From a virus: 64,000 bases of DNA. The first letter of the stretch is position 1. The number at the start of each line of letters is the position of its first letter. Position numbers and translations under genes: made by a program. Of this stretch, positions 22,166 to 44,512 are shown piece after piece. The stretch is from IMG/VR virus record IMGVR_UViG_3300027896_000010, positions 1-64,000 of that record. One strand, 5' to 3'. The notes under the pieces were generated by a model. The model did no database searches. It was not told where the DNA came from and was given only the letters and a program-made list of their open reading frames with translations.

Positions 22166-22390
22166 TTAATCCTGCCATGCATTTTCAAGAGCATCCAAAG
22201 CGGCACCCACTGCAACGGCAGAAGAAACATCATCCATAAGATTTTTGTCCATTAATTCATCCAACAAGCCGTAAACAGAATCCATAAGCCTAGAAACCTT
22301 TGCTTCATACATATCTAAATCGGAGTCATCAGAGCCAAGAACCTCCCTCACTGCCTTCGCTACGACCTGCTCAATCCTCTCTTCATCCAT
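22166..22390 (-). CDS. leader-A acidic protein
   Basis: MDEERIEQVVAKAVREVLG. Confidence 0.75.
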   Translation of the reverse strand: MDEERIEQVVAKAVREVLGSDDSDLDMYEAKVSRLMDSVYGLLDELMDKNLMDDVSSAVAVGAALDALENAWQD

Positions 22391-22406
22391 TTTCTTCCTC
22401 CTATGA

Positions 22407-22700
22407 TTAGACCCCTCGCCGGGAATTCTGGTAAGCTATTTCCTTGTCCAGAGCCTTCAAATACTTCTCGACCATATCTGTCAGGCGACTGGTATTCATG
22501 TCCATATCAGACTGGAAATACCACCCAAGGAACTCCTCGTTCTCTGTTCGCCAGTCTGCCAGCAAATCATAAACATCCTCCAAGCCCGACATGGCTTGCT
22601 CCAGCGAAGCAACTAGATTCCCAGTGTCTTCCCAATTGATGTCTCCCAGCACTTCCTTGACCACTTTTGATACTACTGCTTCAAGCCTTTCTTCATCCAT
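22407..22700 (-). CDS. leader-A acidic protein
   Basis: MDEERLEAVVSKVVKEVLG. Confidence 0.75.
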   Translation of the reverse strand: MDEERLEAVVSKVVKEVLGDINWEDTGNLVASLEQAMSGLEDVYDLLADWRTENEEFLGWYFQSDMDMNTSRLTDMVEKYLKALDKEIAYQNSRRGV

Positions 22701-22701
22701 G

Positions 22702-22974
22702 TTATTCTCCTTGACTTAAGTCGCTCTGAACGTTCTCGCATATCTCCTGACACAAATCCCACAGGGCATCTTCTACTGACGCTGTGCGACACTCCAATGG
22801 TATAACCTGAACAGTCGCCTCGAACACATCGTATACGAAATCATCGAGCGACCCCATGTCTTCATACAAAGTCAGAGCATAGTTCTCGGTATCGCTAGCG
22901 AGGCGTTCGATATCAATCGCGTCTTCGTCTATCTTGAACTGCGCTACGAGTCTTTGAGATGGCTTGAGTTGCAT
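22702..22974 (-). CDS. acidic protein with SQRLVA (motif B) N-terminus
   Basis: MQLKPSQRLVAQ. Confidence 0.65.
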   Translation of the reverse strand: MQLKPSQRLVAQFKIDEDAIDIERLASDTENYALTLYEDMGSLDDFVYDVFEATVQVIPLECRTASVEDALWDLCQEICENVQSDLSQGE

Positions 22975-22984
22975 TACATCCCTC

Positions 22985-23320
22985 CTAGAACGATGGGGGT
23001 AATTCTTTGCCTAGTCTATCCAAGACCTTCCCTGCCAAGTTCAGAGCAGAACCGGCATCATCGCCCTGATTCATCATTGTCCTCAAAATATTGAGAGCCG
23101 CTACCACATTCGAATCCAGCCTTAATGCGTCACTAACAGCAATAGCCGCTTCCCTGCACCACTTGCTGGTATACGCATCATCCATATCAAACTCGAAATG
23201 ATTGACATAATCAGCCAGTTTCTCCATATCAATAATATATCCAATTACAGTATCGCCCCTTTCTGCCAATACTTCTTTCACTACTTTTGATATCACTTCT
23301 TCAAGCCGTTGTTCATCCAT
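22985..23320 (-). CDS. leader-A protein
   Basis: MDEQRLEEVISKVVKEVLA; ATG at 23320 coupled to the upstream TAA. Confidence 0.75.
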   Translation of the reverse strand: MDEQRLEEVISKVVKEVLAERGDTVIGYIIDMEKLADYVNHFEFDMDDAYTSKWCREAAIAVSDALRLDSNVVAALNILRTMMNQGDDAGSALNLAGKVLDRLGKELPPSF

Positions 23321-23712
23321 TACCATTCCTCCTCTAATCCGATTTCTTTTAACAGGTCGGGAACCGAAGTCATCTGGTCTGGGTCTTCTGCCCATACACG
23401 CAGATGCGGAATTATATATGCATCCATCCTTGCCGCAGTATTTGAAGAGCCTACATACTCTGCCGATTCAAACTGTGACTTCACAGCCTCTGCTAGTTCT
23501 ATAGCCTCATAAATTTTTTCCTCAAGCTCTTTGATGGCACCAGCCAGTTCTTCTACTTCAGTGTCTCGATTTTCTCTTTCCTCTTCACCAAGTTCGTCAT
23601 CTTCGTCATCAAACTCGTCGTCTGCAATATGCTCAATATGCATAGCACTCTTCACAACTCGTTCCACCATGTCCTCAAGCTCTTCTATTTCATAGCAATC
23701 AAAATCTGACAT
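23320..23712 (-). CDS. acidic protein with divergent leader-A
   Basis: EELEDMVERVVKSAM. Confidence 0.65.
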   Translation of the reverse strand: MSDFDCYEIEELEDMVERVVKSAMHIEHIADDEFDDEDDELGEEERENRDTEVEELAGAIKELEEKIYEAIELAEAVKSQFESAEYVGSSNTAARMDAYIIPHLRVWAEDPDQMTSVPDLLKEIGLEEEW

Positions 23713-23723
23713 CCTAATCCCTC

Positions 23724-24428
23724 CTACATAAAACCGATATCCTGTTCGACTGTAATAGGCTCGTCCTTAGGGCTAAGCAATTGCTGAAGTTTCTCAGGCG
23801 GTGCCAAATCAAGTGGTTCCGTATTTACAAAATCCATCAACTGCAAGGCATCCAGCATTACCTTGGTGGTACGTTTCCTACCACCCTCGTCCCATTCTAC
23901 TATGGCAAAATTGGGAGTAATCTCTATCACCGTTATCCTCTGACCCTTGGATACTCGCACTGGAAACCCATTGGGGTATCTGACGGTAGCGGTGTCGCCC
24001 TCTTCTAGTTCCCTGAATGCCAGCTTAGCTACGTGTTGTACTACTTTATTAAGGTCTTCAATATAATTGTCCACTGCAGATAACAGGTCGGCTTGGACAT
24101 CTCCATTCTCTAACAGTTCCTCTGGAAGACCATCGTATTTCTTAAGCAACCGAATGATATCAAATGGGATAGTGGGAAAAAATGCCGTAGCGGGGATTCC
24201 CTTGAGCTTGTTATAGGTGAACATCAATGCTGGCTTTACCCTGCCCATTTCTACATCCCCACCTATCAATGCTTTCAACAACGTATCCTTAATCTCTCTC
24301 AAGGCATAAGTTGAATCTATCAATGCTGGATAGTATTCGTCTATGGAATGCTGGGGCGGGGGCAACGCTTTGGGCTTCGACTCCTCTATTGCTTCTGCTA
24401 TGACTTCTTTCAGCGAATAATACCGCAT
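23724..24428 (-). CDS. hypothetical protein, possible C-terminal SH3-like barrel
   Basis: 234 aa; GDTATV..VSKGQRITVIEITPNFAIVEW. Confidence 0.6.
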   Translation of the reverse strand: MRYYSLKEVIAEAIEESKPKALPPPQHSIDEYYPALIDSTYALREIKDTLLKALIGGDVEMGRVKPALMFTYNKLKGIPATAFFPTIPFDIIRLLKKYDGLPEELLENGDVQADLLSAVDNYIEDLNKVVQHVAKLAFRELEEGDTATVRYPNGFPVRVSKGQRITVIEITPNFAIVEWDEGGRKRTTKVMLDALQLMDFVNTEPLDLAPPEKLQQLLSPKDEPITVEQDIGFM

Positions 24429-24452
24429 TGCTGTCCCCCCTAGGGCTGCCTT

Positions 24453-24995
24453 TTATATCAGCCCTAATTCAACTAACCAAGATGGATATCCATGAGGACA
24501 GGCCGTGCAGTCTGGTTCCACGCGACACCCATCTGTGGCTTTGGCTACACCATCGTACATCCATTTCTCCATCGTCTTGATGCTGGGCTGTTTGGTCTTG
24601 GGAGTCTTCTTCTGCCGATGCTCTCTCAAAAATTCCCCTGCTTCCTCTGGAGAGATATCCGCAAGAACTTCCTTGACCACCTTACTGATTATCTTCGCAA
24701 GCCTATCTTCATCCATGGTGACTTCCCCCTCGTTATAGTCATACAACTTATCATCAACCCAGTATCTAGGGTCGCTATAGTCTAGCCCTGACTTCAACCC
24801 GCCCTCATATTGCTTGCTACATTCCAACAGAGCCTTCTTCAATTGATGAACCTGCTGTTCTAAATCCGTTATCTTATTGATATAAGCAGTGCATTGGTCT
24901 TTGTGATACATCTTCATCTCGTCCATCTTATGAAGAACTTCTCCAACAGAAGGGTCTTTGCTTAGTGGGGGCAGACCACCTGATTTCTCTTCCAT
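24453..24995 (-). CDS. two-part ORF with internal leader-A start at 24716 and C-terminal Cys/His motif
   Basis: GAGGGG-N-ATG MDEDRLAKIISKVVKEVLA; DGCRVEPDCTACPHG. Confidence 0.7.
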   Translation of the reverse strand: MEEKSGGLPPLSKDPSVGEVLHKMDEMKMYHKDQCTAYINKITDLEQQVHQLKKALLECSKQYEGGLKSGLDYSDPRYWVDDKLYDYNEGEVTMDEDRLAKIISKVVKEVLADISPEEAGEFLREHRQKKTPKTKQPSIKTMEKWMYDGVAKATDGCRVEPDCTACPHGYPSWLVELGLI

Positions 24996-25294
24996 TACTC
25001 TCTCCAGTCTATATTCTTTCTCTCTTCAGTCTTTCTGGTTTTTATGAGAAAGACTTCTAGGGCATCATAGACAGCAGTCAATCTTTCTTTTATCTCCATG
25101 GATTCAGCGATGCCAGCTTCCCCAGAAATCTTCTCCAGCTCATCCTCGGCTTCACCTATCAGATTAAGAGCTTTGTGGGTAGCCACATCATCTTCCTCGC
25201 TCCAGTCTGAAGGATAGGCTCCCTCTTCGGTATCCCAAGCCAAAACCTCTTTCACCACTTTTGATATCACTTCTTCAAGTCTTTGCTCATCCAT
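24995..25294 (-). CDS. leader-A acidic protein
   Basis: MDEQRLEEVISKVVKEVLA. Confidence 0.75.
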   Translation of the reverse strand: MDEQRLEEVISKVVKEVLAWDTEEGAYPSDWSEEDDVATHKALNLIGEAEDELEKISGEAGIAESMEIKERLTAVYDALEVFLIKTRKTEERKNIDWRE

Positions 25295-25295: not shown

Positions 25296-25724
25296 TTATT
25301 CCTCCGGCTTCACAGGTCGCCGTCTCTCTTGCATCCTCTTGCTCTGCTCTTCGAGGAACCATTCGTAATTATCCTTTGAGGCTCTCGCCCTGAATCGGAG
25401 ATTGTTAACAGCATCCTCAACCTTTGGCTTGAAGTCCTTGACGGTACGAGATACATCCTGAAGGTTGCCTATGACAGAATACCTGTAACTCATATACTCC
25501 CACTGTACCGTATTGGAATTGTTATGAAGATTCTCTTCAATGGTATCAGCTAGCTCAGCGACACTTTCTAGCTGAGTCACAAGAGCCTCTAGCTCATCGG
25601 TTACATCAGCAACCCTGCCTATCATGCCACCCATATCATCTCTAGCATCATACTTGAGTGCCATCTTCTTACCACCCAGTACTTCTGCGACTGCTTCTCG
25701 GACTATCCTTTCAATATCATCCAT
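25296..25724 (-). CDS. leader-A coiled-coil protein
   Basis: MDDIERIVREAVAEVLG..KKMAL. Confidence 0.72.
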   Translation of the reverse strand: MDDIERIVREAVAEVLGGKKMALKYDARDDMGGMIGRVADVTDELEALVTQLESVAELADTIEENLHNNSNTVQWEYMSYRYSVIGNLQDVSRTVKDFKPKVEDAVNNLRFRARASKDNYEWFLEEQSKRMQERRRPVKPEE

Positions 25725-25734: not shown

Positions 25735-26010
25735 TTAGTGCTTGTGGTGATGACGTCTCATGTGTTGCCTATCGGCTCTCGCTTTCGCCCTGCGCGAAGC
25801 CCTGTTAGGCTCTGTGTTATTAACTTTCTCCTTGGGGAACTTCACCCATACGGAGCGCCCCTTATGAACTATAATTTTGCCCAGAGGATTATCGTTATCT
25901 GGCGGTGGAACCATTAACAAATTGGCATCGTATCCAAATTCTTTTCCTGATTCTGCATCTTGCATTGTGTTCTCCCTAGTGTGAAATAAAGGCAACGTGC
26001 CTAGCACCAT
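25735..26010 (-). CDS. hypothetical protein
   Basis: true start probably MQDAESG, after the upstream stop. Confidence 0.5.
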   Translation of the reverse strand: MVLGTLPLFHTRENTMQDAESGKEFGYDANLLMVPPPDNDNPLGKIIVHKGRSVWVKFPKEKVNNTEPNRASRRAKARADRQHMRRHHHKH

Positions 26011-27301
26011 ATCTCGTCAGGCGCTCGTTTCTGGGTAACCAGCAGAACAGACAAAGCTCTACACCCTTTGGCCCCATCCCTTCTCCGCATCCTCCTGTCT
26101 CTTTATACGGACACATGAAAACTTCACTCGGCTTTATCCGGTCTCTCTTACCCAGCCCCTGATTCAATACATTGAGAGTCTGTTGAAGAGTGGCTCCTCC
26201 TTTGGGAATTATCAATGCCAATCCATCTACGTTAGGATTCTTGAGGAAAGACCTTATCTTTTCATTCGTACTGCCTTCATAATAAGTAGATTCTTCTTTC
26301 CAATTGACCTTGTCTTTCTTAGGCTCCATTTTTGGTAAACCAGTCGCCTTGTCATACACTATCTCATTTTGGTGATTGGGATTTTTGTTTCTCACAGGTT
26401 GCATTATCACTTCGCCAGTTTCTGGGTCTATGGATTCTGCTTCGTCATAGAAATTAGTAGGCAATTCATAATTAGGGTCAATGCTTCCGTTGAATACCAT
26501 GTTCTCTGGTTTATCCCTCATGTTCTCCAACAGCTTGTATACCTTGGTGAAAGCCATGAACCTGACCTGTGGGCATCCCCTTGCTACATCCATCCATTTA
26601 TAGAAATAGTCCTTATCATAGAAGTCTCCAGACTCATGTATCCTAATGATATCGACGCCATCTTTGTAAGCTTGCCTTATGCCAGTAATCATCAGGCTTG
26701 TGAAATTGGAGTCAAGAGATGTATAGTATCTATCCATCCTGTAAGGAAGAGATTGGTTATACATCCCCTCTGGCTTTCTGGCATAACAAAATTCATGACA
26801 AAACTCAGTTGATTCTGGACAAGTCTTCCAGCATGGAAGACACCACACCCCTATCCTCGCGTCTAACTTACGGTTACCATATTTCAATAAATCTTTTGAG
26901 GCCACAAGTACTCTCCCGCAAGGGCTTAGCATCTTATCCCCTGTGAACTTATCACTTCCCTTGGCAGGGTCATATTTATCCCTCTTCTGGGTGCGAGGCT
27001 TCTTCCCCCTATCAGTAGTTTGCTGTAAGTAAAGCCCCCTTTGCTCGTCTTTCTTTACTTTGAATTTCGATTCTAAGGTCATCCCAAGGCTAGACATATC
27101 GATATCATCTATGACCATAAACCCATTTTGCTTCGCTACTCCTATGAAGTCACCAACTGAGTGGATAGCTCTATGGACTATGTTCTTAAGCTTATCCCAT
27201 AGTCCAGCCTCTCTTATAATTTCATCAGCAATATGGGAAGCTATGACTTCAATGTTATCGCTTATAACCTTAGCTATAACATCATCTATCCAGTCATCCA
27301 A
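25976..27301 (-). CDS. Gp88-like (radical-SAM-like Cys cluster) protein with leader-A
   Basis: CLPCWKTCPESTEFCHEFCYA, IRIHESGDFY..Y..KW, FMAFTK; leader MDDWIDDVIAKVISDNI. Confidence 0.75.
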   Translation of the reverse strand: MDDWIDDVIAKVISDNIEVIASHIADEIIREAGLWDKLKNIVHRAIHSVGDFIGVAKQNGFMVIDDIDMSSLGMTLESKFKVKKDEQRGLYLQQTTDRGKKPRTQKRDKYDPAKGSDKFTGDKMLSPCGRVLVASKDLLKYGNRKLDARIGVWCLPCWKTCPESTEFCHEFCYARKPEGMYNQSLPYRMDRYYTSLDSNFTSLMITGIRQAYKDGVDIIRIHESGDFYDKDYFYKWMDVARGCPQVRFMAFTKVYKLLENMRDKPENMVFNGSIDPNYELPTNFYDEAESIDPETGEVIMQPVRNKNPNHQNEIVYDKATGLPKMEPKKDKVNWKEESTYYEGSTNEKIRSFLKNPNVDGLALIIPKGGATLQQTLNVLNQGLGKRDRIKPSEVFMCPYKETGGCGEGMGPKGVELCLFCWLPRNERLTRYGARHVAFISH

Positions 27302-27312: not shown

Positions 27313-28536
27313 CTATTTCTTCTCTTCCTTCTTTTCCTTTACGGTCTCCTTCGCTTTCTCGGCAGAAGGAGTGGCACTCTTGCCCATCTTGTCTACTACC
27401 TCGTCATGCACCCAGTCGAGAATATCGTCTGCATACTCACGCACGACATCATAGACCAGAGCCTCGTCGCCCTTCTCTTCCTTCGCCCATCGTGCGACAT
27501 CGGTCATGAAGGATTGAATGTCTCCAAACACATATCCACTGTCTTGGTCAACTGGCATAGAATCCCCTACATCCAGCGTCTCTGGGAGCGTAGCTGGCTC
27601 CTCAGGGGCTTCTGGAGCCATCGGAGCCTCTGCCCCTATGTCCATGTCACCCTCGTCGCCCTTACCGGCAGGTGGGACGGGAGGGCCTTCAGGCTCAGCC
27701 GCTTCCTTCTCAATCTCCTGCTTAACCAACCTCGCTATTAACTTTACAAGCTCTTCGTCTTTCATGCTGTTCTCCTTTATGTAAGCTGATTTTTCTATAG
27801 GCCAGTAATTTCCACCTGATTCTTTCATATCTTTTTCTGGAACAGTTTGCATAAATCTTTTTACTACGACTGGATTATTGTCAGCACACGTTAACATATC
27901 TTCATCTTTAAACATTATGCAAACTCCATTACTGGAATTGCCTTTACTAGAAGTTAAGTAAGCCATCATTGTAGGTACGTAAGGAACAAGTTCGTCACCT
28001 TCTGGATGATAACCCCCAAAATCCAAATTTTTCTTTTTGTAAGTTGTTAGAATTCTCTTTATCTTTACTGAAGTAGGAGCGTACCAAACCCACGCACCTC
28101 TTCCAGTAATATGGTCATACTCTACTCCTGTATAAACCCAAGGTGTGCTGGGGTCAGTTAACATCTCTTGCTCTGCCAATTCCAACTTATTCAACCATGC
28201 TTGCCTTATGTCGCTATGTTCGTATTGCTTATCTCTATCAATAGGCCCAAACCTCTCTTCGTCCATCCTATCCATGTACGCATCTTCAGATTCATCTTCA
28301 CGCATACCATCTGCCAGCACCTCCTTGACCACCTTTGCTACTACCTGTGCAATCCTCTCTTCATCCATGATTCTCTCCTTTATCTTGCTAGCTTTATCAT
28401 GCGAGAACTCACTCCCGCAGTCCTGACAGCGGAACCATTCCTTAGCTCCAAGAGTACCCAGCGGGACTCCTATGCCTGAGCAATACGGGCAACTGGGATT
28501 CTCCAGCGGTTCATCTAACTCATCATAATCTTCCAT
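27313..28536 (-). CDS. composite ORF: zinc ribbon plus two internal leader-A units (starts 28368 and 27765)
   Basis: CPYC..CQDC; MDEERIAQVVAKVVKEVLA; MKDEELVKLIARLVKQEI; each preceded by AAGGAG. Confidence 0.7.
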   Translation of the reverse strand: MEDYDELDEPLENPSCPYCSGIGVPLGTLGAKEWFRCQDCGSEFSHDKASKIKERIMDEERIAQVVAKVVKEVLADGMREDESEDAYMDRMDEERFGPIDRDKQYEHSDIRQAWLNKLELAEQEMLTDPSTPWVYTGVEYDHITGRGAWVWYAPTSVKIKRILTTYKKKNLDFGGYHPEGDELVPYVPTMMAYLTSSKGNSSNGVCIMFKDEDMLTCADNNPVVVKRFMQTVPEKDMKESGGNYWPIEKSAYIKENSMKDEELVKLIARLVKQEIEKEAAEPEGPPVPPAGKGDEGDMDIGAEAPMAPEAPEEPATLPETLDVGDSMPVDQDSGYVFGDIQSFMTDVARWAKEEKGDEALVYDVVREYADDILDWVHDEVVDKMGKSATPSAEKAKETVKEKKEEKK

Positions 28537-29973: not shown

Positions 29974-30089
29974 GCCCACTCACATATCCAATCCATGGGC
30001 AAGAACCTCTTGAATGAACATTCCCAAGAGGCGTCACAATCCTCACAGCCCATATCTAATATGCAAAGAAAGCTACAAAATTCATTCAT
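29970..30089 (-). CDS. 39-aa Cys-rich peptide (below ORF-track cutoff)
   Basis: MNEFCSFLCILDMGCEDCDASWECSFKRFLPMDWICEWA; overlaps both neighbours. Confidence 0.4.
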   Translation of the reverse strand: MNEFCSFLCILDMGCEDCDASWECSFKRFLPMDWICEWA

Positions 30090-31152
30090 TAGTATCATCT
30101 CTAGAGTTATCGTGGTCACCGCCTACTTTTGTTATCTCATGGAAAAGTATTGCCTTATCAATCATTTCTTTGGTAGTAGAGCCAGCCTTATCTTTCGGCC
30201 TTAACATTTCAAGAACAGAATTAATCTCTGCCAGTTTACTCAGCATGGCGCTTGCCACCATCTCTTGGATATCCCTTTGCTCTTCATCGAAGTAATCCAT
30301 AGTATCTCCAGCCGCCTCGTGATAACGGTCTGTTATTTCCCCAGCTACCTGACCGATAAGCCAATTGATATCAGACTTTCTGAGTTGCGTATATAACTCA
30401 GTTAGCAGGGGAGCTATCTCTCTTTTAATCGCCTTCCTGAATGCCTCATAAGCCTTAGGGTCACGATAGAACCTCTCCAGAGGACTTTCGAATTTACCCT
30501 GAGGCAGGGCGTCTATAAACTTTCGTGCCTGTAGTTCACAGGAGTCCAACACATCGAAGATATAGGCTCTGCCTACGCTGACGTTGGCTTCGTTCCTGCC
30601 AAGGCTATAGGGGCCGTTAGAAGGCTCCAGATGCAATCTATTCCTATATTCTTGTAGTTCTTCAGTAAGAGCCGACAGAACCTCTAGCGTGGCTTCCCTG
30701 ATTATCCTGACTAGTTCTGGCCCCTTTATAGAAGCCTCTATCGCTGTCGGGTCATATTCCCAGAATGGGCAATCCATACCAGACCCCTCTCCCACTGGCT
30801 CGTCTGCTGGAGTCCTCGTTAGGTCTTCTGGCTCCGCATAGGTCAAATCCATGAAGTCCTTATCAGCCTCAAGCTCTGTACCAATTTCATCCCACGCTTG
30901 GTCATATTTAAGCTCATCTTGGTCGGTCTGCCCGGGATTGGCGACGATATCATTTACTTGAGGCCCGAACTTCTTGACCAGCTTTTTCTTCTTGCCATCC
31001 GACCATATAGCAAAAATGGCTTCCGCTTTCTCCCTGCGTTTCGGATTAGTGCAAAGCTCTTCCTCCTGATACGGGTCATACATAGAACTTGGGTTCATCC
31101 ACTCAGCCACTTCGTGCCATCTACAATTCATACATCCTATATCTTCATCCAT
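30082..31152 (-). CDS. two-domain hypothetical protein with an internal leader-A-like helix
   Basis: CxxC..C..C N-terminal domain; ELVRIIREATLEVLSA junction. Confidence 0.6.
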   Translation of the reverse strand: MDEDIGCMNCRWHEVAEWMNPSSMYDPYQEEELCTNPKRREKAEAIFAIWSDGKKKKLVKKFGPQVNDIVANPGQTDQDELKYDQAWDEIGTELEADKDFMDLTYAEPEDLTRTPADEPVGEGSGMDCPFWEYDPTAIEASIKGPELVRIIREATLEVLSALTEELQEYRNRLHLEPSNGPYSLGRNEANVSVGRAYIFDVLDSCELQARKFIDALPQGKFESPLERFYRDPKAYEAFRKAIKREIAPLLTELYTQLRKSDINWLIGQVAGEITDRYHEAAGDTMDYFDEEQRDIQEMVASAMLSKLAEINSVLEMLRPKDKAGSTTKEMIDKAILFHEITKVGGDHDNSRDDTNE

Positions 31153-32366: not shown

Positions 32367-32579
32367 TCAAGGCGGTGGGGCTGGCGGTGTCCAAGTATCT
32401 GGGTCTACCGTGTCCATGACAGTAAAATCTGCTGGGATGCTCTCATCAGATTCCATGAACGACTCTAGGAACTTCCCCAACTGAACCCATTTCTCTTCAT
32501 CTGGCTTAAAAGCCATATACTTCCCGCCTATGGCTTCAAGACCGCTCCACAGGACATACGCTAATTTCGGGTATGACAT
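32367..32579 (-). CDS. stand-alone copy of the shared ~62-aa C-terminal module
   Basis: YPKLAYVLWSG..GKYM.F.PDE.KWV.LG..LESFMESD. Confidence 0.75.
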   Translation of the reverse strand: MSYPKLAYVLWSGLEAIGGKYMAFKPDEEKWVQLGKFLESFMESDESIPADFTVMDTVDPDTWTPPAPPP

Positions 32580-34500: not shown

Positions 34501-34536
34501 AACTGAATCACCATTTGTTACTTACCCTTCTTTTTG

Positions 34537-36579
34537 CTATGCATCTAGACTTCTGGTACTGTTAATTGTAATGTTTTCTGGCAGACTTCCTGTTGAGTCC
34601 ATAAAAGACTCCAGAAGCTCTCCAAGAACTACCCACTTAGTTTCATCTGGATTAAAATCCATGTACTTGCCGCTTATCACGCCATCCCCATTCCACGTTA
34701 CATTTGCCAGCTTAGGGGTTGCTGTTGAAAAAGATGAATTTTCTATGTTACTCTTTGCCCTAAGTGTTCTAGTCGTGTGTATTGTTGGAATCAGAATGTT
34801 GCTCTTTACCGTAAGTGTTCTAGTCGTGTGTATTGTTGGAATCAGAATGTTACTTTTCGCTATAAGCGTTTGGACTATAGTTGTCTGTCGTTCTACCCAG
34901 CTTACCCCCAAGGTGTGATTGCCACGTACATCAGTAAACAGATAAGAGCCGACAGTTCCAATATCTTCTCCGTCGATAAATATGTGGAACGTCCAATCTT
35001 CACTCTCTGAGTTGATAGTAAACAGAACACCCTCACCAAAATCAACTAACACTACTCCACTTGGGTCTAAAGTACCGTGTGAAGGCGAACCCTGTGTTGC
35101 TGTTATCGTAAATGTAGGTGCATCAACATTGAAGTTAGGGAAGTTGCTTTCACCTTGGTCTGTCATGACTTCCATAGGAATAGTGCCATAATTGGCATCC
35201 ATGCCCACAGTACAGACTATCTCTTTATCACTCCAAGAAACTATGTCGGCAGCAATACTTCCTATTATGACCCTGCCATATTCTCCCTGTGCCGCCCCAA
35301 AACTGTACCCATCAATGGTAACCGTCCCGCCCCTTGACGCGTGGTCTGGAGACAGGCTAGTTATATATGGTGTCCTGTCTACAGTGAAAGCATAATGATT
35401 GCTCTCCCCTGCTTCAGTGGTAATCACTTCCGCAAAGCCAACACCAAATGGTACGCCCTCTACCACCTTACAGACTATCTCTGTGCCACTCCAAGAAACT
35501 ACGTCTGCAACTTCATAGCAAATAACCGCTATATCTTCTTCCCCTTGAGTGTCCCCAAAGCCAGAACCACTAATGGTTACTGGCGCACCTATCGGAGCAT
35601 GGTCAGGAACTATGTCAGCTATGTGCGTAGGCACCCACGCCTTAGCGGTTAAACTATGAGCAGTGAGACGAAAATCCGTAACGTCTGTCTTACCAGTTAA
35701 AGTCCTTGTAGTTGTCTTCTTGACATCAGCCTCACTGGTTTCTGTCTTGATATGCCTCTGCAATATAAGTGCTTTCGAAGTCTCGGTATGCTTGACCAGC
35801 CAATGAACCTTCGCCTTGGAAGTTACAGTTTCTGTTGTGTGCGTCACAAGCTCAAAAGGAATCGTATTTGACCACATTGGTGTGTATGCATTGGTAACAT
35901 ATATTCCGCTTGCTAATGTGTGTAGGCTTGGCGGTACTGGGCAGGTTATCGAAGTGTCTGACCATGATGTGTAATAAGATTCTACGTTGTCAGGAACAAA
36001 TGTGACAAAACTCGACTCATGCTCATCGCCAAAACCTTCCCCTGTCAACACCACGCTGTCCATAAGAGCAGCTTCATTTGGAACCACCGAAAGCACAATA
36101 GGATTGCCAAAGCTGTACTGGAGCCACTCAGGGCCACCATCCCAATCTGCCATCCACGAAAGAGCGTCATCGGCATGGAAGGCAGTATACGGAAGCCAAC
36201 CACCACTGGTATGACTCGCGCTGACAACGTTCGGTGCTGGAGAGCTATTGGCTTCCATGTTGTAGCAAATATCGGTGCCGTTGAGCGTAAGACCCATCTT
36301 GTATATCAGAACGGAAGTGTCTACACCTTGGATAGCGGTGACGGTTATCCGAAAGTCCCTGTACAGCACAGGGGTCTGGTACAAAACATAACTTTGCTTC
36401 TGGGCCACAGTTGTTGTATTAAAGCTCTGGTTCGTCACAGAATGTAAAAGCGTGGACGTACTGAACCCATCGTTGCTCCCAGATAGCGTCCACGACTTTA
36501 TGGCCTTGGACAGACCGCCCCCATCATGGGCTGGTATTATCCAGTACCCATTGATTTTGTGTGCGCCCGGAGTCGCCAT
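34537..36579 (-). CDS. virion decoration/adhesion protein (discoidin F5/8-like, three IPT/TIG, InlB-like, shared C-terminal module)
   Basis: IKSWTLSGSNDG, EWLQYSF, (L/I)TG(E/S)GFG..SWS(D/G)TEI repeats. Confidence 0.75.
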   Translation of the reverse strand: MATPGAHKINGYWIIPAHDGGGLSKAIKSWTLSGSNDGFSTSTLLHSVTNQSFNTTTVAQKQSYVLYQTPVLYRDFRITVTAIQGVDTSVLIYKMGLTLNGTDICYNMEANSSPAPNVVSASHTSGGWLPYTAFHADDALSWMADWDGGPEWLQYSFGNPIVLSVVPNEAALMDSVVLTGEGFGDEHESSFVTFVPDNVESYYTSWSDTSITCPVPPSLHTLASGIYVTNAYTPMWSNTIPFELVTHTTETVTSKAKVHWLVKHTETSKALILQRHIKTETSEADVKKTTTRTLTGKTDVTDFRLTAHSLTAKAWVPTHIADIVPDHAPIGAPVTISGSGFGDTQGEEDIAVICYEVADVVSWSGTEIVCKVVEGVPFGVGFAEVITTEAGESNHYAFTVDRTPYITSLSPDHASRGGTVTIDGYSFGAAQGEYGRVIIGSIAADIVSWSDKEIVCTVGMDANYGTIPMEVMTDQGESNFPNFNVDAPTFTITATQGSPSHGTLDPSGVVLVDFGEGVLFTINSESEDWTFHIFIDGEDIGTVGSYLFTDVRGNHTLGVSWVERQTTIVQTLIAKSNILIPTIHTTRTLTVKSNILIPTIHTTRTLRAKSNIENSSFSTATPKLANVTWNGDGVISGKYMDFNPDETKWVVLGELLESFMDSTGSLPENITINSTRSLDA
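34745..34860. repeat. 51-nt in-frame tandem duplication
   Basis: KSNILIPTIHTTRTL present twice. Confidence 0.9.
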
Positions 36580-36588: not shown

Positions 36589-36885
36589 TTACTCTGCCCT
36601 TCTGTCGTCAAACATCTGAAGCACTTCATCATATATGCGTCTGATTGCCTCTTCTTTGGCTCTTTCAAACCACATGTCTACTTCCTTTTTCGCCATGCTT
36701 TTGACTTCACCAGTACTGGCATTGGGCTTATTCTTCACAAACCAATTGAATATGGCAGTCGCCTCGGCTCGGACTTCGACATCAGGCATAGAAGGATATG
36801 ACCAAGCTTCCTTCGACAGGCCTCTATCTTCTCCAAGAACTTCATCAACCACTTTTGATATGATTTGGTCTAGCTGGTCGCCCAT
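36589..36885 (-). CDS. leader-A protein
   Basis: MGDQLDQIISKVVDEVLG. Confidence 0.72.
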   Translation of the reverse strand: MGDQLDQIISKVVDEVLGEDRGLSKEAWSYPSMPDVEVRAEATAIFNWFVKNKPNASTGEVKSMAKKEVDMWFERAKEEAIRRIYDEVLQMFDDRRAE

Positions 36886-37108: not shown

Positions 37109-37360
37109 TTAGTCCATTAAACTTTTAATAATTTGCAATGCTCGTGCTGTATCCTTTCCCAATCCAGTGATTACATCACCAAGCCACTTTTTGGCACCTT
37201 CCAAATCGCCATGGTTTATATCTTCGAGCGCCCAAGGCAATTTAGTTTCGGCGTAATAACGCATCCCACCAATAATCTCTAGAAGCTGAGACATGTCCGA
37301 CCATCCCAACACTTCATGAACTGCTTCCTTTACTATCTCTCCAATGCGCTCTTCATTCAT
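37109..37360 (-). CDS. leader-A protein
   Basis: MNEERIGEIVKEAVHEVLG. Confidence 0.72.
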   Translation of the reverse strand: MNEERIGEIVKEAVHEVLGWSDMSQLLEIIGGMRYYAETKLPWALEDINHGDLEGAKKWLGDVITGLGKDTARALQIIKSLMD

Positions 37361-38141
37361 TCTCTTCTTCCTCCAAGTCGCTCAAGATATCATCAAGCTG
37401 GTCAATGCAATCCGCTAACTGGTCTATGGCTTCATCTATTGATGAGACAGGATTAAGCTTAAGGTCTATAAGCTGTTGCCCTATCTCAGCGATATCTGTC
37501 TGCCACTGTTCGGCATCATCTTCTATGCCATCTTCTTGCAGTTCGTCAAATGGCTCTTCCTCTTCACCCAGTACTTCTCTCAGTACCTTTGATATCACAG
37601 CTTCAAGCTTATCTTCATCCATAGCTATCTCCTTTATACTTGCCGCTGGTCGTAATGACCAAGGCCCTTTGGCGCTCCACTCTTCTGGCTCATTCTGATT
37701 ATACTCAGCAGTACCTATCTCCTGACCGCACTCTGGGCAGTGGAGAATCCAGCATGCAGGTTCGAAATCGCAATCATCATTGCTCTCGTATTCCTTATCC
37801 GCTTTCGATTCACTACCTTTCCATCCACAGAAATCACAGGTCAATAACCTTGTAGGCTCTCCCCATCTTGCTTCCTTGTGGTACTTCATATATTGCTCAC
37901 CGAACTCTGTAAAGCCATCCTCGGTAGTCCAGTAGACTTTGTCTATGTCCTCATCTGCGAACCACGCTTGTACCCTCGCTGGGACTCCGTATTGTTCGCT
38001 CAGCTTCTGAGCTTTCTTGATGGCATTAGGGACATTCGTCGCGCCCTGCCCACTTGACCTCCAGCCACTTGGTGTGCCAGATATCTTTTTCCCGAATTGG
38101 AGATATACTTGATAGGCTCCATAGCCACCATGTTTAGTCAT
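37353..38141 (-). CDS. composite ORF: N-terminal domain, zinc ribbon, internal leader-A unit (start 37622)
   Basis: CDFCGW..CPECG; AAGGAG-N7-MDEDKLEAVISKVLREVLG. Confidence 0.7.
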   Translation of the reverse strand: MTKHGGYGAYQVYLQFGKKISGTPSGWRSSGQGATNVPNAIKKAQKLSEQYGVPARVQAWFADEDIDKVYWTTEDGFTEFGEQYMKYHKEARWGEPTRLLTCDFCGWKGSESKADKEYESNDDCDFEPACWILHCPECGQEIGTAEYNQNEPEEWSAKGPWSLRPAASIKEIAMDEDKLEAVISKVLREVLGEEEEPFDELQEDGIEDDAEQWQTDIAEIGQQLIDLKLNPVSSIDEAIDQLADCIDQLDDILSDLEEEENE

Positions 38142-38325: not shown

Positions 38326-38844
38326 CTAGGTTCCTTGGTTAAGCTGATGTCTATCGATAGTGACGTCTGCCCTTCGATATGCATCATTTCCATATTGCAT
38401 TTTGAATGCTTCATACTCTGCCGACATTATGTTCTCATAGAAATCTCTTGCTGTTTCTCCAGTATGAGTATCAACCCCCAACTCTATGCTTTTATCATCA
38501 TCATAGGTCGAATCATTTGATGGGAAGATATCCCAGCCTCTATCATAGTTGACTAGGACATTGGCCCAAGAGTCATTGGGGACCCTAGCCGAAGTATCCG
38601 ATATCGTGAGCCTAGAAATATGACCGTTGTTTATGCCGAACTCAGATGGCTCATCAAAGAACTGAACGTTAGCCTTAAGGTTGTCCTTGCCAACCAATAC
38701 ATAATTACTCCCTGAATCTACATTTACCGTATAGCCCATCTTCCTCAAGATGCTTGCGAAGTGTTCTAGTATCTGGCTCTCCTCTTCCTCCTGCCCCAAA
38801 ACTTCCTTTACCACTTTTGATATGATTTGCTCTAGTTCGTCCAT
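38326..38844 (-). CDS. leader-A protein
   Basis: MDELEQIISKVVKEVLG. Confidence 0.75.
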   Translation of the reverse strand: MDELEQIISKVVKEVLGQEEEESQILEHFASILRKMGYTVNVDSGSNYVLVGKDNLKANVQFFDEPSEFGINNGHISRLTISDTSARVPNDSWANVLVNYDRGWDIFPSNDSTYDDDKSIELGVDTHTGETARDFYENIMSAEYEAFKMQYGNDAYRRADVTIDRHQLNQGT

Positions 38845-38919: not shown

Positions 38920-39177
38920 CTATATTCTTGTCCAGAACCCTATTTCATATTCTGTTAATTTATACAGGTCATCATATGTCTTGAACTCTCCCTTATCTAT
39001 CGCCTCACTCAATCGACTTAAACGATGCTTAATCTCAGTAATATCGCCATCTAATGACTCTTGATAAAATTTCTGTTGCCTTTGATATAGCTCATCAGAT
39101 TCCTCTTCTGCCAAATTGGGATTGGCCCCCAGCACCTCTTTGACTACTTTTGATATAATTTTTTCTACTTCGTCCAT
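38920..39177 (-). CDS. leader-A protein
   Basis: MDEVEKIISKVVKEVLG. Confidence 0.75.
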   Translation of the reverse strand: MDEVEKIISKVVKEVLGANPNLAEEESDELYQRQQKFYQESLDGDITEIKHRLSRLSEAIDKGEFKTYDDLYKLTEYEIGFWTRI

Positions 39178-39429: not shown

Positions 39430-39723
39430 TTACTCAGCACTGCCCTGCCACTTAGGATTCATTTGATATTCTCTGATAATATCTCTGGCGTCTGCCAGAT
39501 GGGCATAGATTCTCTGAACATCACCAATAGGGAGATAGGCATCCTGTTCACTACCAGTGTACATATGGTCTTTGATACCATACATTATTCTCGCCGCATG
39601 ATGTGTCGCTTCCCTCACCTCCAAATCCAGACTCTCTAGGTCTTGGTCGAAAGTCTTTCCTGTATCAGCCAGTACTTCTTTGACCACTCTGGTCACTACC
39701 TCTGTTACTCTGGCTTCGTCCAT
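39430..39723 (-). CDS. leader-A protein
   Basis: MDEARVTEVVTRVVKEVLA. Confidence 0.75.
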   Translation of the reverse strand: MDEARVTEVVTRVVKEVLADTGKTFDQDLESLDLEVREATHHAARIMYGIKDHMYTGSEQDAYLPIGDVQRIYAHLADARDIIREYQMNPKWQGSAE

Positions 39724-39733: not shown

Positions 39734-40375
39734 CTAGATATGTTCCTCCCAGTATTCGGTAAGCTTCTCCGCTAGCTCCTGTGCATCGTGAGGAATTCGC
39801 CTGACCGCCTTCATCATCAGCATAGGCTCACCAGACATCTCCATCCTAGCGTTCACATAATCCCTGATGCCTATCATGGCATCGCCTATCTCTTCGGTGA
39901 TGTGCAGGATTTCTTCTTTCAGTTCTGCCCTGTCGGAAGCCATCTTGCCCTCAAGCCCAAAGCCTACCCCTGCCTTCATCTCCCCGCACACAGGACACCA
40001 GTATTCATAGACGCCCCCGTACATCTTGGTTTTCTGGAGAGGCGCTCCGCAGTCGGCACACTTTGCGGCTAAGACTTCCTTGACCACCTTTGATATGATT
40101 TGCTCTAGCTCATCCATGATATCCTCCTTGTAGCTGGCGGCGACTAGTTCGACCTGCCCCCTGCCACGCAATACGTCAGCACAACTATTCAACAGTCTCG
40201 TCAACTCTTCGTAATCGACCCCATCATCACGAGTCTCGGCAAACAACTCCGCATTGGTAATTAGGTTTTCAATTACACGCAAGAAGCCCTCACTGTCCCA
40301 GAACAGTTCATCTACTCCACTTACGCTTTCCTTGACTACCTTTGCTATGATTTCATAAAGCCGTTGCTCACTCAT
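39734..40375 (-). CDS. tandem leader-A ORF (second unit starts 40117) with zinc ribbon
   Basis: MSEQRLYEIIAKVVKESV; AAGGAGG-N-MDELEQIISKVVKEVLA; CADC..CPVC. Confidence 0.72.
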   Translation of the reverse strand: MSEQRLYEIIAKVVKESVSGVDELFWDSEGFLRVIENLITNAELFAETRDDGVDYEELTRLLNSCADVLRGRGQVELVAASYKEDIMDELEQIISKVVKEVLAAKCADCGAPLQKTKMYGGVYEYWCPVCGEMKAGVGFGLEGKMASDRAELKEEILHITEEIGDAMIGIRDYVNARMEMSGEPMLMMKAVRRIPHDAQELAEKLTEYWEEHI

Positions 40376-40387: not shown

Positions 40388-41065
40388 CTATGGGAGAACG
40401 ACTACATCTTCAAGATAAGTCCTGAGGTATTTCTGGAAGCCTTCGATGTCTGCGTCTATCTCCTCCATGAAATTCTCCACAACTCCCTCGACATCCCAAC
40501 TAAAAGCTGGCCCCTGATAATGATTGGTCCAGTATTGATGAGCCTCTTGTGCCAACCTCATAGCCATTTCTTCAAGATTGCGACTGTTCAATCTGCTTTC
40601 CAAGCTGACATAGCTATCCACAAATTCATCTTCATCGTTCTCGTAATCAACCGCTTCCTTCACCACAGCACCAGCCGCCTTCTCTTCTGTCCTCTGGGGC
40701 TTGGCCTTTACCGATGGCTTAAAATCCTTACATACGGTACAGCGCCATCCCGGTGGGTTCTTCCTACCCTCTCCACCTGCCCTGTTATGGAGCCTTTTGC
40801 CCTCGCCGTACTTCTCGTCCTGATAATCGTTCTTGCAAGTGCATGGCAGGACTTTGGTATTCTCTGCGGCTATAACTTCTGCAATTACCCTATCTACAAC
40901 TTCTTCAAGCTGTTTCTCGTCCACTAGCTCGTCCTCCAGCTTCCCTACAACATCTGTAATCTGTTCCCCACTAAGAGCATCTTCCTCTTGCCCTATCACT
41001 TGCTCTGTGGCTAGAACTTCCATGACTACTTTTGATATGATTTGCTCAAGCTTTTCTTCGTCCAT
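40388..41065 (-). CDS. double-leader-A protein with small Cys/His zinc domain
   Basis: MDEEKLEQIISKVVMEVLA; DEKQLEEVVDRVIAEVIAA; CTC..H..CTVC. Confidence 0.72.
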   Translation of the reverse strand: MDEEKLEQIISKVVMEVLATEQVIGQEEDALSGEQITDVVGKLEDELVDEKQLEEVVDRVIAEVIAAENTKVLPCTCKNDYQDEKYGEGKRLHNRAGGEGRKNPPGWRCTVCKDFKPSVKAKPQRTEEKAAGAVVKEAVDYENDEDEFVDSYVSLESRLNSRNLEEMAMRLAQEAHQYWTNHYQGPAFSWDVEGVVENFMEEIDADIEGFQKYLRTYLEDVVVLP

Positions 41066-41077: not shown

Positions 41078-41386
41078 CTAGTCTTCGAGCGTTTCTGTAT
41101 TTATTGAGAGATAAACAAGCCTTGCTTCCGTAAACAGTTCTTCCATCTTCTGGAACTTCTGTGTGAGGTCTGCATACTTGAGATTCGTTTCGTCTGGCTC
41201 CATCCCATATATCTGGCTTATAGCCGCCCTCACAGAGTCTATGCCATTGGCAGCATACTCAGCCGCATTGTCAGCCAATCTCTGCACTTCCTCTGCCGAA
41301 GTACCTTCCCAGTCTATTTCCTTAACTGCTTCCTTGGCTTGCCTCATTGCTCTCGACACTATAGCTTCTAGTTTTTTATCATCCAC
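41078..41386 (-). CDS. leader-A protein (divergent)
   Basis: GTG start, MDDKKLEAIVSRAMRQA. Confidence 0.65.
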   Translation of the reverse strand: MDDKKLEAIVSRAMRQAKEAVKEIDWEGTSAEEVQRLADNAAEYAANGIDSVRAAISQIYGMEPDETNLKYADLTQKFQKMEELFTEARLVYLSINTETLED

Positions 41387-41494: not shown

Positions 41495-41797
41495 TTATAT
41501 CCCTCGTTGTTTTTGATATGGATTGTCCCAATGCTCTTTTTCCCAATTTCTTTTATGTCTTATCGGTGTACCATCGTACTCTGTTAGTCTAGAAATCTTA
41601 GGCCAACGTACCCTTAATTCTTTTTGGGGGTCACTTGGGTCTTCAATAATTATGGCTTCATCGTTAACTTCCAAAACATTAAAATTATCTCTCATGCCTT
41701 TTTCAAGTATGTCAAAAATTTGTTGGTAAGAATTCCCTGCCCCAATTACTTCTCTCACAGCTTCCCTGACTATTCTCTCTATCTGTCGTTCGTCCAT
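41495..41797 (-). CDS. leader-A protein
   Basis: AGGAGG SD, MDERQIERIVREAVREVIG. Confidence 0.72.
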   Translation of the reverse strand: MDERQIERIVREAVREVIGAGNSYQQIFDILEKGMRDNFNVLEVNDEAIIIEDPSDPQKELRVRWPKISRLTEYDGTPIRHKRNWEKEHWDNPYQKQRGI

Positions 41798-41805
41798 GGC
41801 TCCTC

Positions 41806-42224: not shown

Positions 42225-42740
42225 TTATTCTTCCTCTTCTTCATATTCTTCAGGTTCAGGCTCATCTTCAAACAAAGTATATCTTTCTTCATGGTGGAAT
42301 CGGAATAGGACATCAGAGAACATATCTGGCAGCAGCCTGTCTATGTTATTTCTGCAATAGATATAATCTTTCGGGCTATCTGCATTCTCATTAAGAAACC
42401 CGAAAGTGTCTGACAATATCTTCTTAAAACCCTCTAGCACCATACCATAAGCCTCTTGAAACAAAGACTCCATCTCCATTGCTACCTTCCGACTACCCCT
42501 CGACCTTCTTATAGCTTCGTCTCGCTGGTCTTTCAGAGCATCCCTGTTCTCTGTGAAGAGGTCTGAGTAGTCACCCTTAGCGAAACTCTCCCACTTCTCA
42601 AACATGAAATCTTTCGGGAGTGGGTCTATTCCAGCTTTCGCACACACTTCTTCATACTCTGCATAGCGACCCTCTAGGTCTTGTGGATTCAGTATCTCGC
42701 TCACGACTCTAGCAATGATTTCATTTAGCTGGTCATCCAT
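42225..42740 (-). CDS. leader-A protein
   Basis: MDDQLNEIIARVVSEIL; internal RKVAM junction. Confidence 0.72.
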   Translation of the reverse strand: MDDQLNEIIARVVSEILNPQDLEGRYAEYEEVCAKAGIDPLPKDFMFEKWESFAKGDYSDLFTENRDALKDQRDEAIRRSRGSRKVAMEMESLFQEAYGMVLEGFKKILSDTFGFLNENADSPKDYIYCRNNIDRLLPDMFSDVLFRFHHEERYTLFEDEPEPEEYEEEEE

Positions 42741-42827
42741 ATCGGTTCCCCCCCGTTTTACCTAGCGTTTTACCTACTATAGCTAAAATGACGTTTTACT
42801 TAGTTTTATCTAACTTCACAATAAAAT

Positions 42828-42853
42828 AGGCTCCCTACCGTGGTAGAGAACCT
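42828..42853 (-). terminator. probable intrinsic terminator
   Basis: 11-bp hairpin AGGTTCTCTAC-cacg-GTAGGGAGCCT with G-U pairs, then ATTTTATT. Confidence 0.6.
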
Positions 42854-43000
42854 CATATGACTAGCCTATCCTGTCTATTGTTTTACTTAAACTGTTATTT
42901 TATAAATCTGATACCACTGCTCTTAGCATAAGCAGGTCGCTGAGTCATCCAACGTCTATGTCTACTTTATCGTTACCGTTATCGTCTGGTCTGCTATTCA

Positions 43001-43270
43001 TCAGGGAAACATCTCCAGCCATTGAGTCAGGTCGCCACATACGTCCAAGGCTTTATCCAGATACTCTTTGATATTCCCACTCTCACCAGATACCTTCCCA
43101 GATATCGTTCCCTTCGTCTGGAGGAAGTCGAATATCGGTTCGAGCTTTGCTGAGGCTCCCGACAGTTCCGTATATATCGTGTTAAGAGCGGTAAGCAGGT
43201 CGAACCTGTCTACCGCTAGGACTACCCTTATGGCATCTGCTGTGATGGCTTCGAGCCTGTCTTCATCCAT
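43001..43270 (-). CDS. leader-A protein
   Basis: MDEDRLEAITADAIRVVLA. Confidence 0.72.
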   Translation of the reverse strand: MDEDRLEAITADAIRVVLAVDRFDLLTALNTIYTELSGASAKLEPIFDFLQTKGTISGKVSGESGNIKEYLDKALDVCGDLTQWLEMFP

Positions 43271-43281
43271 GGCGTTCTCCT

Positions 43282-43545
43282 TCAGTCCAATAAATCGTTT
43301 GAAAGCCTTCTAAGGTCTGCCAGCCTGTTTGAAATCACACTTAGCCAGAAGGACATTCCTTCTTCGAGTACTTCTCTAGGAGAGAACTGAGGGACTCGCT
43401 CCTTATCCTTACAGGCTTCCATTATCGAGTGTGCCGCTTGGAAGATATCGTATGCCTTATCCGATATTTCTTCGAACTCTTCTCCGCTCTGGAAAACCTG
43501 ACGAACAGTCTCGGCTATAATTTCTTCGAGTCGCTCTTCGTCCAT
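43282..43545 (-). CDS. leader-A protein
   Basis: MDEERLEEIIAETVRQVF. Confidence 0.72.
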   Translation of the reverse strand: MDEERLEEIIAETVRQVFQSGEEFEEISDKAYDIFQAAHSIMEACKDKERVPQFSPREVLEEGMSFWLSVISNRLADLRRLSNDLLD

Positions 43546-43560
43546 GGTATTCTCCTTGTG

Positions 43561-43836
43561 TTAGACCTTATGCTCAGAGCATTTACAATTATCGTGGATA
43601 TCCCCGGGCATCAGACCCCCAGCATACTCTCCCCCTGCGGGTCGCCTCTCCCCATCCATCTCTTGACAAGCCTCACAGCATCCGGGCATACTCGTCCATT
43701 CATACTCTTCTTCGTCGTCGTCCTGACCGTAGACCTCGAAATGTTCCTTGATACCCATTAAGCTACTCCCAATCCCAGTTACAGCTATTAATAAGCCACC
43801 CAACTTCATCAGATACCAAGTTAGCAATCTGGTCAT
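43561..43836 (-). CDS. small membrane protein with C-terminal Cys/His motif
   Basis: hydrophobic N-terminus; CCEACQ..HDNCKC. Confidence 0.45.
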   Translation of the reverse strand: MTRLLTWYLMKLGGLLIAVTGIGSSLMGIKEHFEVYGQDDDEEEYEWTSMPGCCEACQEMDGERRPAGGEYAGGLMPGDIHDNCKCSEHKV

Positions 43837-44512
43837 CTATAATCTCTTCATCCCAATCATCAGGAACTTCAACTTTTACTGTGTCGGGCAAATCGATATC
43901 AACATCTTCTCCCAACTCTTCGTCATAAGTATCCCAGTTGATATCAGTTACAATAGCAACCCTTGCAGTTTTATAGATAGCCCCAACCACCCTAGCTATA
44001 ATATCATCAATCTTTTCATCCATACTGTAACTGGCTACCGCTCCAAGCCCCAAGCCCTCTAAAGTTTCATTGAGCTTCTCGGCTAGGTCAGGGTTAGAAT
44101 GGACGAGACGCTTATAGATATACTTCCACGAGCCACCACGAATCCGAACATCTTCCACCATATGCTCTAGCTCTGGCATGGCTTCCAGTACCTCATCTTC
44201 CCATGGCAAGTTCACAGCAATCTCAACTCGTTTAGCCTCAGTTATTTCAGCAACTACTCTAGTTATAATTTCATCAAGATTGTCCATGCCATTTCTCCTA
44301 GCATAGTATGGCATGTCATAAGGAACGACCATGGGTCGTTTACTGATAGGCTGGTCTTCGCCACGTTGGTAGTCCTGACCAGTAGGGGTGGAGATGTTTC
44401 CTCGGAAGGGGTCTAGAAATCCTGTGTAGATTTCGTAGTTGAGAGCTTCATCCTCAACTTCTTTTTCTTCTTCTTCTTTTTCTTTTCTTGGTCTAGATTT
44501 ATATCCCATCAC
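43763..44512 (-). CDS. composite ORF with two internal leader-A units (starts 44286 and 44023)
   Basis: MDNLDEIITRVVAEI; MDEKIDDIIARVVGAI. Confidence 0.7.
   Translation of the reverse strand: MMGYKSRPRKEKEEEEKEVEDEALNYEIYTGFLDPFRGNISTPTGQDYQRGEDQPISKRPMVVPYDMPYYARRNGMDNLDEIITRVVAEITEAKRVEIAVNLPWEDEVLEAMPELEHMVEDVRIRGGSWKYIYKRLVHSNPDLAEKLNETLEGLGLGAVASYSMDEKIDDIIARVVGAIYKTARVAIVTDINWDTYDEELGEDVDIDLPDTVKVEVPDDWDEEIIDDQIANLVSDEVGWLINSCNWDWE

Follow-up and report, generated by a model that had tools for sequence, protein, structure and literature searches.

The locus described here raises the question of why two dozen viral open reading frames (ORFs), whose products are otherwise unlike one another, share a single short helical peptide. 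These ORFs form an array at positions 22166-44512 of a 64,000-base window, the whole stretch of DNA that was analyzed, which corresponds to bases 1-64000 of the 193,437-base virus record IMGVR_UViG_3300027896_000010. A preliminary description of this DNA had proposed the peptide, referred to here as the tag, as a candidate address that brings proteins into the capsid, with removal by the prohead protease after the model of T4. Our analysis indicates that an address to the capsid is the best reading, on the ground of context, as tag copies flank protease and capsid genes both in this genome and in unrelated jumbo phages, whereas T4-like removal by the protease is unsupported. We consider it fairly probable that the tag is a prohead-loading signal for a variable set of co-injected proteins.

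The record is 95% complete according to CheckV and carries nearly all of its genes on the minus strand. The closest matches of its capsid, protease, portal, and terminase are found in mycobacteriophages Bxz1 and Myrna and in related Gordonia and Rhodococcus phages, and its protease and portal also match Bacillus phage G. Since sheath, tube, and baseplate-like genes are present (read by eye), the genome is, judging from its gene content, that of a 193-kb uncultured myovirus with a head of the Bxz1/Myrna/phage G type. The last ~100 bases of the contig repeat bases 31-130, an overlap suggesting that the genome is probably circular. Read in this way, a single uninterrupted late arm on the minus strand comprises the array, window positions 1-22000, and the head module (160-193 kb). 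Its genes follow the order terminase, ribonucleotide reductase, tag array (44.5 to 22.2 kb), polyproteins, portal, protease, scaffold, capsid, tail, and early/replication arm.

Across the whole genome, we identified 31 tag copies on 27 proteins. The shared leader that had been reported for about 26 proteins is real, but the actual count in the window is 28 copies in 24 minus-strand ORFs, with 19 copies at the N-terminus and nine at internal positions (24716, 27765, 28368, 30723, 37622, 40117, 40921, 44023, and 44287). All 26 starts originally listed bear the motif on the minus strand, although 44286 should read 44287 and, for a copy listed as degenerate, 40920 should read 40921; of the other copies listed as degenerate, that near 23690 scores just 3.3 bits, and that near 29870 was not picked up by the matrix. 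Three further copies are located outside of the window, all in the head module (genome positions 166917, 167709, and 176279). The matrix used was built from 30 tag copies and applied with leave-one-out scoring, by which 23 window copies obtained 21-46 bits, the copy at 41386 obtained 14.7 bits, and the divergent copies at 27301, 27765, and 44023 obtained 8-10 bits. In the six frames of the 193-kb genome, the matrix added one copy, at 30723 (12.5 bits), and beyond the tags no other match of at least 10 bits was found; the same threshold was not attained by a single one of 391,820 shuffled windows.

The tag comprises ~19 amino acids and is acidic at its start. Its core is L-x-x-I-I-x-x-V-V-x-x-V-L, and in 22 of 30 copies the residue after the core is A or G. 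Its hydrophobic residues fall at i, i+3/4, i+7/8, and i+11/12 with a mean hydrophobic moment of 0.62, in agreement with the earlier proposal that they line one face of a helix. In a single-sequence AlphaFold2 model of the 225 amino acid protein with tandem tags, the tags form separate helices, the model being of low confidence, with a mostly unresolved chain and a mean predicted local distance difference test score (pLDDT) of 50.

Pairs of identical tag residues use the same codon in 41.6% of cases, compared with 34.8% expected from codon usage, and shared ancestry is visible in some tag codons. Since synonymous positions are nearly randomized, the tag peptide is under selection; the codon data indicate that the copies share a common origin and that selection acts at the peptide level. 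A DNA repeat or recombination site was ruled out, as silent sites are near random. The same data bear on the idea that the tag is a translation or solubility cassette, composed of a Shine-Dalgarno sequence (SD), an ATG, and a short helix that has no partner, which would have spread by duplication, raising expression and providing homology for recombination. A strong SD within 20 bases upstream of 25 of the 28 window copies, also inside longer ORFs, the conservation of an internal SD in a relative, and the codons with shared ancestry would all fit such a cassette. However, the 19 residues retain a strict hydrophobic face while silent sites are almost saturated, and several copies have no start codon or lie behind their cargo, so that we regard this explanation as improbable. 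Among the nine internal copies, seven retain their own SD and start codon.

The sequences joined to the tag, its cargos, differ from copy to copy as had been described, with a best cargo-cargo score of 8 bits. Gp88, DUF7678, and zinc-ribbon cargos were confirmed, and about a dozen others are acidic helical hairpins (by eye); DUF7678 also occurs in unrelated Bacillota and Actinomycetota phages. With regard to inhibition of host defence, no informative Pfam, PHROG, or PADLOC family was found among the cargos. That the tag is helix 1 of one conserved fold, a domain shared with the cargo, was ruled out, as the cargos are unrelated and of different classes. The cargo behind the tag at 40921 is 58% identical over 36 residues (E 1e-8) to an untagged early-arm gene (genome 132431-132228), which suggests that an early gene was captured behind the tag for pre-loading.

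Comparison with relatives, in which contigs of one sample were assigned to one phage by inference, revealed how cargos change. Sample SRR15116522 contains a phage whose capsid protein is 91% identical, and contig L085 of this sample is syntenic with window positions 23320-24995. The L085 ortholog of the 24995 gene keeps the N-terminal part, the internal SD, and the tag, and carries an unrelated cargo, so that the cargo of this array slot varies between close relatives; the next L085 gene is tagged and bears the cargo of the window gene at 39723. In the head module of this close relative (contig L003), two strong tags are found after the capsid gene, on other cargos and behind them. At L003:15674-16222, within that module, a rubrerythrin/ferritin-like domain (PF02915, DUF2383) precedes the tag; domains of this type are known as encapsulin cargo. 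A phage from sample SRR12594517 (82% identical capsid) encodes an ortholog of the 23320 gene (P0070) with 15 of 19 tag residues and 72 of 92 cargo residues identical, the latter indicating that cargos are under selection too. At the level of gene sequences, these relatives directly display exchange of cargo behind the tag, and this, together with the protein-level constraint on the tag, bears out the plug-and-play use proposed earlier.

Array and head module together account for all 31 copies, which are thereby confined to 17% of the genome. Within the head module, the copy at 176279 is in the gene between protease and scaffold, and those at 167709 and 166917 are in two genes after the capsid gene. 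The 45-166 kb stretch, which includes the early/replication arm with all ten TGnTATAAT-type (extended -10) promoters, contains no tag copy. A pattern scan of IMG/VR for a rumen/gut jumbo-phage motif, picked for comparison because of its likeness to the head-module copies and corresponding to a generic helix, returned 49 loci with 59 distinct tag copies in the same helical register. In 51 of the 59, a Glu lies two residues after the last Leu (L-x-E, the T4 cut site). A matrix built solely from these 59 tags ranks four tags of the present genome at the top among 53,822 proteome windows (22.4, 14.9, 12.6, and 11.7 bits), the best non-tag window reaching 6.6 bits; the value of 22.4 bits belongs to a head-module copy. 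Two complete T4-like rumen genomes carry T4-type protease and capsid genes, with distances of 33 and 5 bases between tagged genes and the protease gene. This shared position by the protease gene is the independent part of the evidence. Taking into account that copies flank protease and capsid genes here, in the close relative, and in two T4-like phages, the tag can be read as a prohead address.

It is possible, although unlikely, that the helix instead self-associates and gathers tagged proteins into a condensate or assembly body within the cell, such as a factory or a decoy sink for host defence proteins, with no entry into the virion. Microcompartment encapsulation peptides of like size and pattern form trimeric bundles and drive their own condensation, more strongly in tandem (PMC12339742); four ORFs of the array have two tags, the tag occurs at N-terminal and internal positions and with unrelated head types, and many cargos are small and acidic. 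This explanation accounts neither for the presence of copies by protease and capsid genes, seen here, in the relative, and in the two T4-like phages, nor for their absence from early/replication genes, and self-association may simply be the mechanism of loading. It would then explain the internal and tandem copies and the occurrence with unrelated heads.

Extending prohead loading in this direction, one helical tag family might act as a loading signal independent of capsid type. By bundling with itself and with an anchor copy in the core, it would condense dozens of interchangeable proteins into unrelated proheads (T4-like, Bxz1/phage G-like, and possibly 0305phi8-36-like), with only its last residues adapting to, or dropping, the local protease site. 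We regard this extension as tentative and rather doubtful; if true, the family would be to phages what encapsulation peptides are to microcompartments.

The prediction that the prohead protease removes the tag in the T4 manner is not supported by the sequence. Both the gp21-type protease (PF03420) and the gp23-type capsid (PF07068), which were found in the rumen-phage controls, are absent from this genome; the tag has no L-x-E site, its copies ending in A/G as mentioned, and the motif K/R-K-T/I-A does not occur in the 4261 residues of the tagged proteins. A different specificity is suggested by the capsid protein of phage G, which is trimmed from 282 to 255 amino acids (PMC5646251), placing the cut after Ala27 by our own count. 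An R/K-x-A motif near the N-terminus is kept in capsid proteins of this family, and K-T-A and K-I-A motifs punctuate the polyproteins of this genome. Taken together, these features make it likely that the head protease of this phage cuts at Ala, and the final A/G of the tag may be such an Ala-type site. The K/R-K-T/I-A class occurs 11 times per 5038 amino acids in polyproteins and scaffold, compared with twice per 21607 in early genes, and the capsid protein begins with the same motif class as the polyprotein spacers.

There are three polyproteins of 864-1761 amino acids in this genome. Two polyproteins upstream of the portal (L002:994-7259, genome 180994-187259) contain repeated (A/G)S-R/H-K-T-A spacers and a DUF2958 module. 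A second short motif, Q-R-K/R-I-A, found at three neighbouring N-termini as well as at junctions within the 1761 amino acid polyprotein (window 11329, 11625, 12079, 29973, and inside 5676-10961), is a candidate protease site. Genomes of the Cluster C mycobacteriophage type, including the cultured Myrna, carry in one to three genes another repeated N-terminal peptide, with a T-A-R-E-Q core and a W-R-x-A end, mostly just after the capsid gene (L043/G005:51699 and 53590; L048/G006:54782, 57096, and 58699; Myrna 52499; G007:64963). This peptide is a candidate loading tag with an Ala-site end in phages that can be grown.

Whether the tag leads into the head can be weighed against docking elsewhere on the virion (the outside of the head, the neck, or the tail) or binding to a host or phage adaptor late in infection. 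TIG-domain and fibre-like genes are interleaved with the array, no cut site is evident, and acidic cargo would suit an outside location. On the other hand, zinc ribbons, Gp88, and DUF7678 resemble cytoplasmic domains, and the prohead-protease site at the end of 51 of the 59 similar T4-like tags points to the head interior, which leaves external docking or adaptor binding with little probability in our view.

Several observations weigh against prohead loading itself. Cargo charge is -0.11 per residue, compared with -0.03 in early genes, which is awkward for packing with DNA, and no conserved cut site follows the tag. The capsid-targeting sequence (CTS) of T4 is strictly N-terminal, whereas 9 of the 28 window copies are internal and the L003 tags of the relative follow their cargo. 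Late expression of the array is suggested by its position and by the lack of early promoters there, and no late promoter was found for it. The tag does not significantly resemble the scaffold of this phage (p 0.16). On a contig of 1.2 kb, a near-identical tag adjoins an unrelated terminase, and tblastn found no tag in any cultured phage. Designed repeat proteins match the tag pattern at 13-17 bits, and the EutC peptide reaches 8.6 bits on the tag matrix, as high as the average rumen tag (8.3). With a helix pattern this generic, the link to rumen tags may reflect convergence.

Some of these subjects have further observations attached. That the tag copies a helix of the scaffold was rejected as weak, with p values of 0.16, 0.02, 0.16, and 0.03 in four scaffolds and of 0.02 for an unrelated control protein. 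In more distant relatives, a tag-like helix starts a gene after the scaffold (L004:3003-3650, 8.1 bits), and tag-like helices occur in tandem inside a scaffold (L142:7616-9451, 12.2 bits). The near-consensus tag on the 1.2-kb contig belongs to a 67 amino acid gene (L087:973-1176) divergent from a terminase of the 0305phi8-36/MTATph1 type, indicating a different phage lineage. A bipartite motif (GGTTATCAA ... TTATTGAC) common to two head-module promoters (genome 187342 and 178291; L002 and L001) is a candidate late promoter and was not found upstream of the array.

Searches beyond this genome returned few tags. Exact DNA-pattern scans of IMG/VR, JGI metagenomes, and GTDB genomes gave no matches, and a word-indexed protein search matched this genome only. 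An exhaustive profile search of 1.8 billion representatives added one spurious repeat and, from other samples, three proteins with the tag. No tag was found in Myrna, in Stormageddon, in the head regions of Bxz1 and phage G, or in 100 kb of Moorella phage MTATph1, and PDB, Pfam, NCBIfam, and the ESM Atlas gave no family for it. A literature search, with most subscription papers lying beyond reach, retrieved no publication on such tag arrays.

These searches also concern the earlier suggestion that the tag docks cargo onto a host microcompartment, in which case it would be a hijacked encapsulation peptide sending cargo into that compartment. The length and helical pattern are the same, and the EutC score fits this view, but the PduP peptide obtains -0.9 bits on the tag matrix, and the shell protein PF00936 is absent from the phage genome, the same profile matching 2 of 14 control genomes. 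Furthermore, none of the cargos is a microcompartment core enzyme, no tag copy turned up when 185,579 prokaryote genomes were scanned for the exact pattern, none of the profile matches among the 1.8 billion representatives is recognizable as a cellular peptide of this kind, and the copies track head genes. Docking to a host microcompartment is thus very improbable.

For prohead loading, we propose the following sequence of events. A cassette of SD, ATG, and tag would be placed before or inside small captured genes of the late arm, whose products would be synthesized together with head proteins. The hydrophobic face of the tag would bind the scaffolding core, its partner being a protein of the core or further tags with which it forms helical bundles, and formation of the shell would enclose the tagged proteins. 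By analogy with the internal protein IPI of T4, packaging in the head and injection may follow, with the proteins staying with the DNA and being delivered at the next infection as an early-acting or anti-defence set. If so, ~27 interchangeable proteins of a large phage would already be inside each new host when gene expression begins, many more than the few known from T4, and tag-based loading would extend from T4-like heads to the Bxz1/phage G lineage. The tag would mark candidate anti-defence proteins with no need of homology, and a position-tolerant loading signal of 19 residues could serve to pack chosen proteins into phage heads. We know of no account of the way in which the T4 sequence recognizes the core, and a helix with a clear binding face makes core recognition testable.

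Table 1. Coordinates of the tag array and its tagged or tag-like ORFs (window positions; aa, amino acids).
Position	Strand	Length (aa)	Tag	Other features
22166..44512	-		28 copies in 24 ORFs	Whole array; interleaved with untagged TIG-domain, fibre-like, C1 peptidase, and DUF1003 genes
about 22100-22130				Terminator-like hairpin after array
22166..22390	-	74	22334-22390, N-terminal	Acidic cargo, helical by eye
22407..22700	-	97	22644-22700	Acidic cargo, helical by eye
22985..23320	-	111	23264-23320	Ortholog P0070 in another phage
23320..23712	-	130	Marginal tag-like helix near N-terminus (3.3 bits)	Helix kept in relative L085
23724..24428	-	234	N-terminus very weakly tag-like (-0.3 bits)	L085 ortholog fused behind DUF1281_C domain
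24453..24995	-	180	24660-24716, internal, own SD and ATG
24995..25294	-	99	25238-25294, consensus	Acidic cargo
25296..25724	-	142	25674-25724
25976..27301	-	441	27248-27301, degenerate	TTG start; Gp88 domain (PF17338, E 1e-27)
27313..28536	-	407	28312-28368 and 27709-27765, internal, each with SD and ATG	Zinc ribbon precedes tags
30082..31152	-	356	30673-30723, internal, degenerate, no start codon
31162..31605	-	147	31549-31605
36589..36885	-	98	36832-36885
37109..37360	-	83	37304-37360
37353..38141	-	262	37566-37622, internal, SD and ATG	Zinc ribbon; very acidic cargo
38326..38844	-	172	38794-38844	DUF7678 cargo (E 7e-16)
38920..39177	-	85	39127-39177
39430..39723	-	97	39667-39723	Homologous tagged cargo (45%) elsewhere in relative L085
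39734..40375	-	213	40319-40375 and 40067-40117, latter with own SD and ATG	Zinc ribbon
40388..41065	-	225	41009-41065 and 40868-40921, tandem
41078..41386	-	102	41330-41386, divergent	GTG start
41495..41797	-	100	41741-41797
42225..42740	-	171	42687-42740
43001..43270	-	89	43214-43270
43282..43545	-	87	43489-43545
43763..44512	-	249	44237-44287 and 43970-44023, internal

Within the array, three adjacent genes of 680, 630, and 70 amino acids (window 32367-36579) have in common a C-terminal segment of ~45 amino acids, which makes up nearly all of the smallest gene and is a possible virion anchor for TIG-domain fibres. A 260-base gap upstream of the 42740 gene (window 42741-43000) contains a terminator-like hairpin and four TAAAAC repeats and is possibly a promoter or regulatory site. 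The genome also encodes PAS-domain and receiver-domain proteins, an OmpR-type regulator, and an extracytoplasmic function (ECF)-like sigma factor (window 20258-21629; genome 132821-136139).

Among known systems, the nearest in principle is the CTS of T4, where diverse internal proteins have nothing in common but a targeting sequence, by which they enter the scaffolding core (PMC3012670). The T4 sequence, present on IPI/II/III and Alt, is likewise a short peptide on diverse, lineage-specific small proteins, with cargo exchange and a link to head assembly (PMC3012670). It is, however, a 10 amino acid peptide scoring -23 bits on the tag matrix and found on few proteins, whereas the tag is a 19 amino acid amphipathic helix with 31 copies on 27 proteins, also in internal and tandem arrangement; T4 has the L-x-E site and a gp21/gp23-type head, and this phage has neither, its head being Bxz1/Myrna/phage G-like. 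The system appears to work like the T4 CTS but is not a member of it, given the differences in defining site and head type. The tag of rumen T4-like jumbo phages shares the helical register and the position of tagged genes adjoining the prohead protease gene, but it has a basic N-terminus and an L-x-E end (51 of 59) in place of an acidic start and an A/G end, and the heads are unrelated. Microcompartment peptides (PduP, PduD, and EutC) are also amphipathic helices of ~18 residues in modular fusion to unrelated cargo, and tandem copies raise partitioning (PMC12339742). Their likeness to the tag in sequence is weak. They go with shell genes, core enzymes, and a disordered linker, whereas the tag is phage-encoded, has no shell genes in its genome, and mostly lies at most 10 residues from its cargo. 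Polyvalent proteins and MuF fusions, encoded close to head genes, are variable and composed of several modules, and their packaging and injection have been predicted (PMC5512222; Iyer et al., 2017) in a paper whose text does not name DUF2958, DUF1281, or YubB. This genome also has three polyproteins, but the tag is a short helix on mostly single small cargos. Particular to this phage are a head of the Bxz1/phage G type, a tag that has lost the Glu site and is used internally and in tandem, and the direct evidence of cargo exchange.

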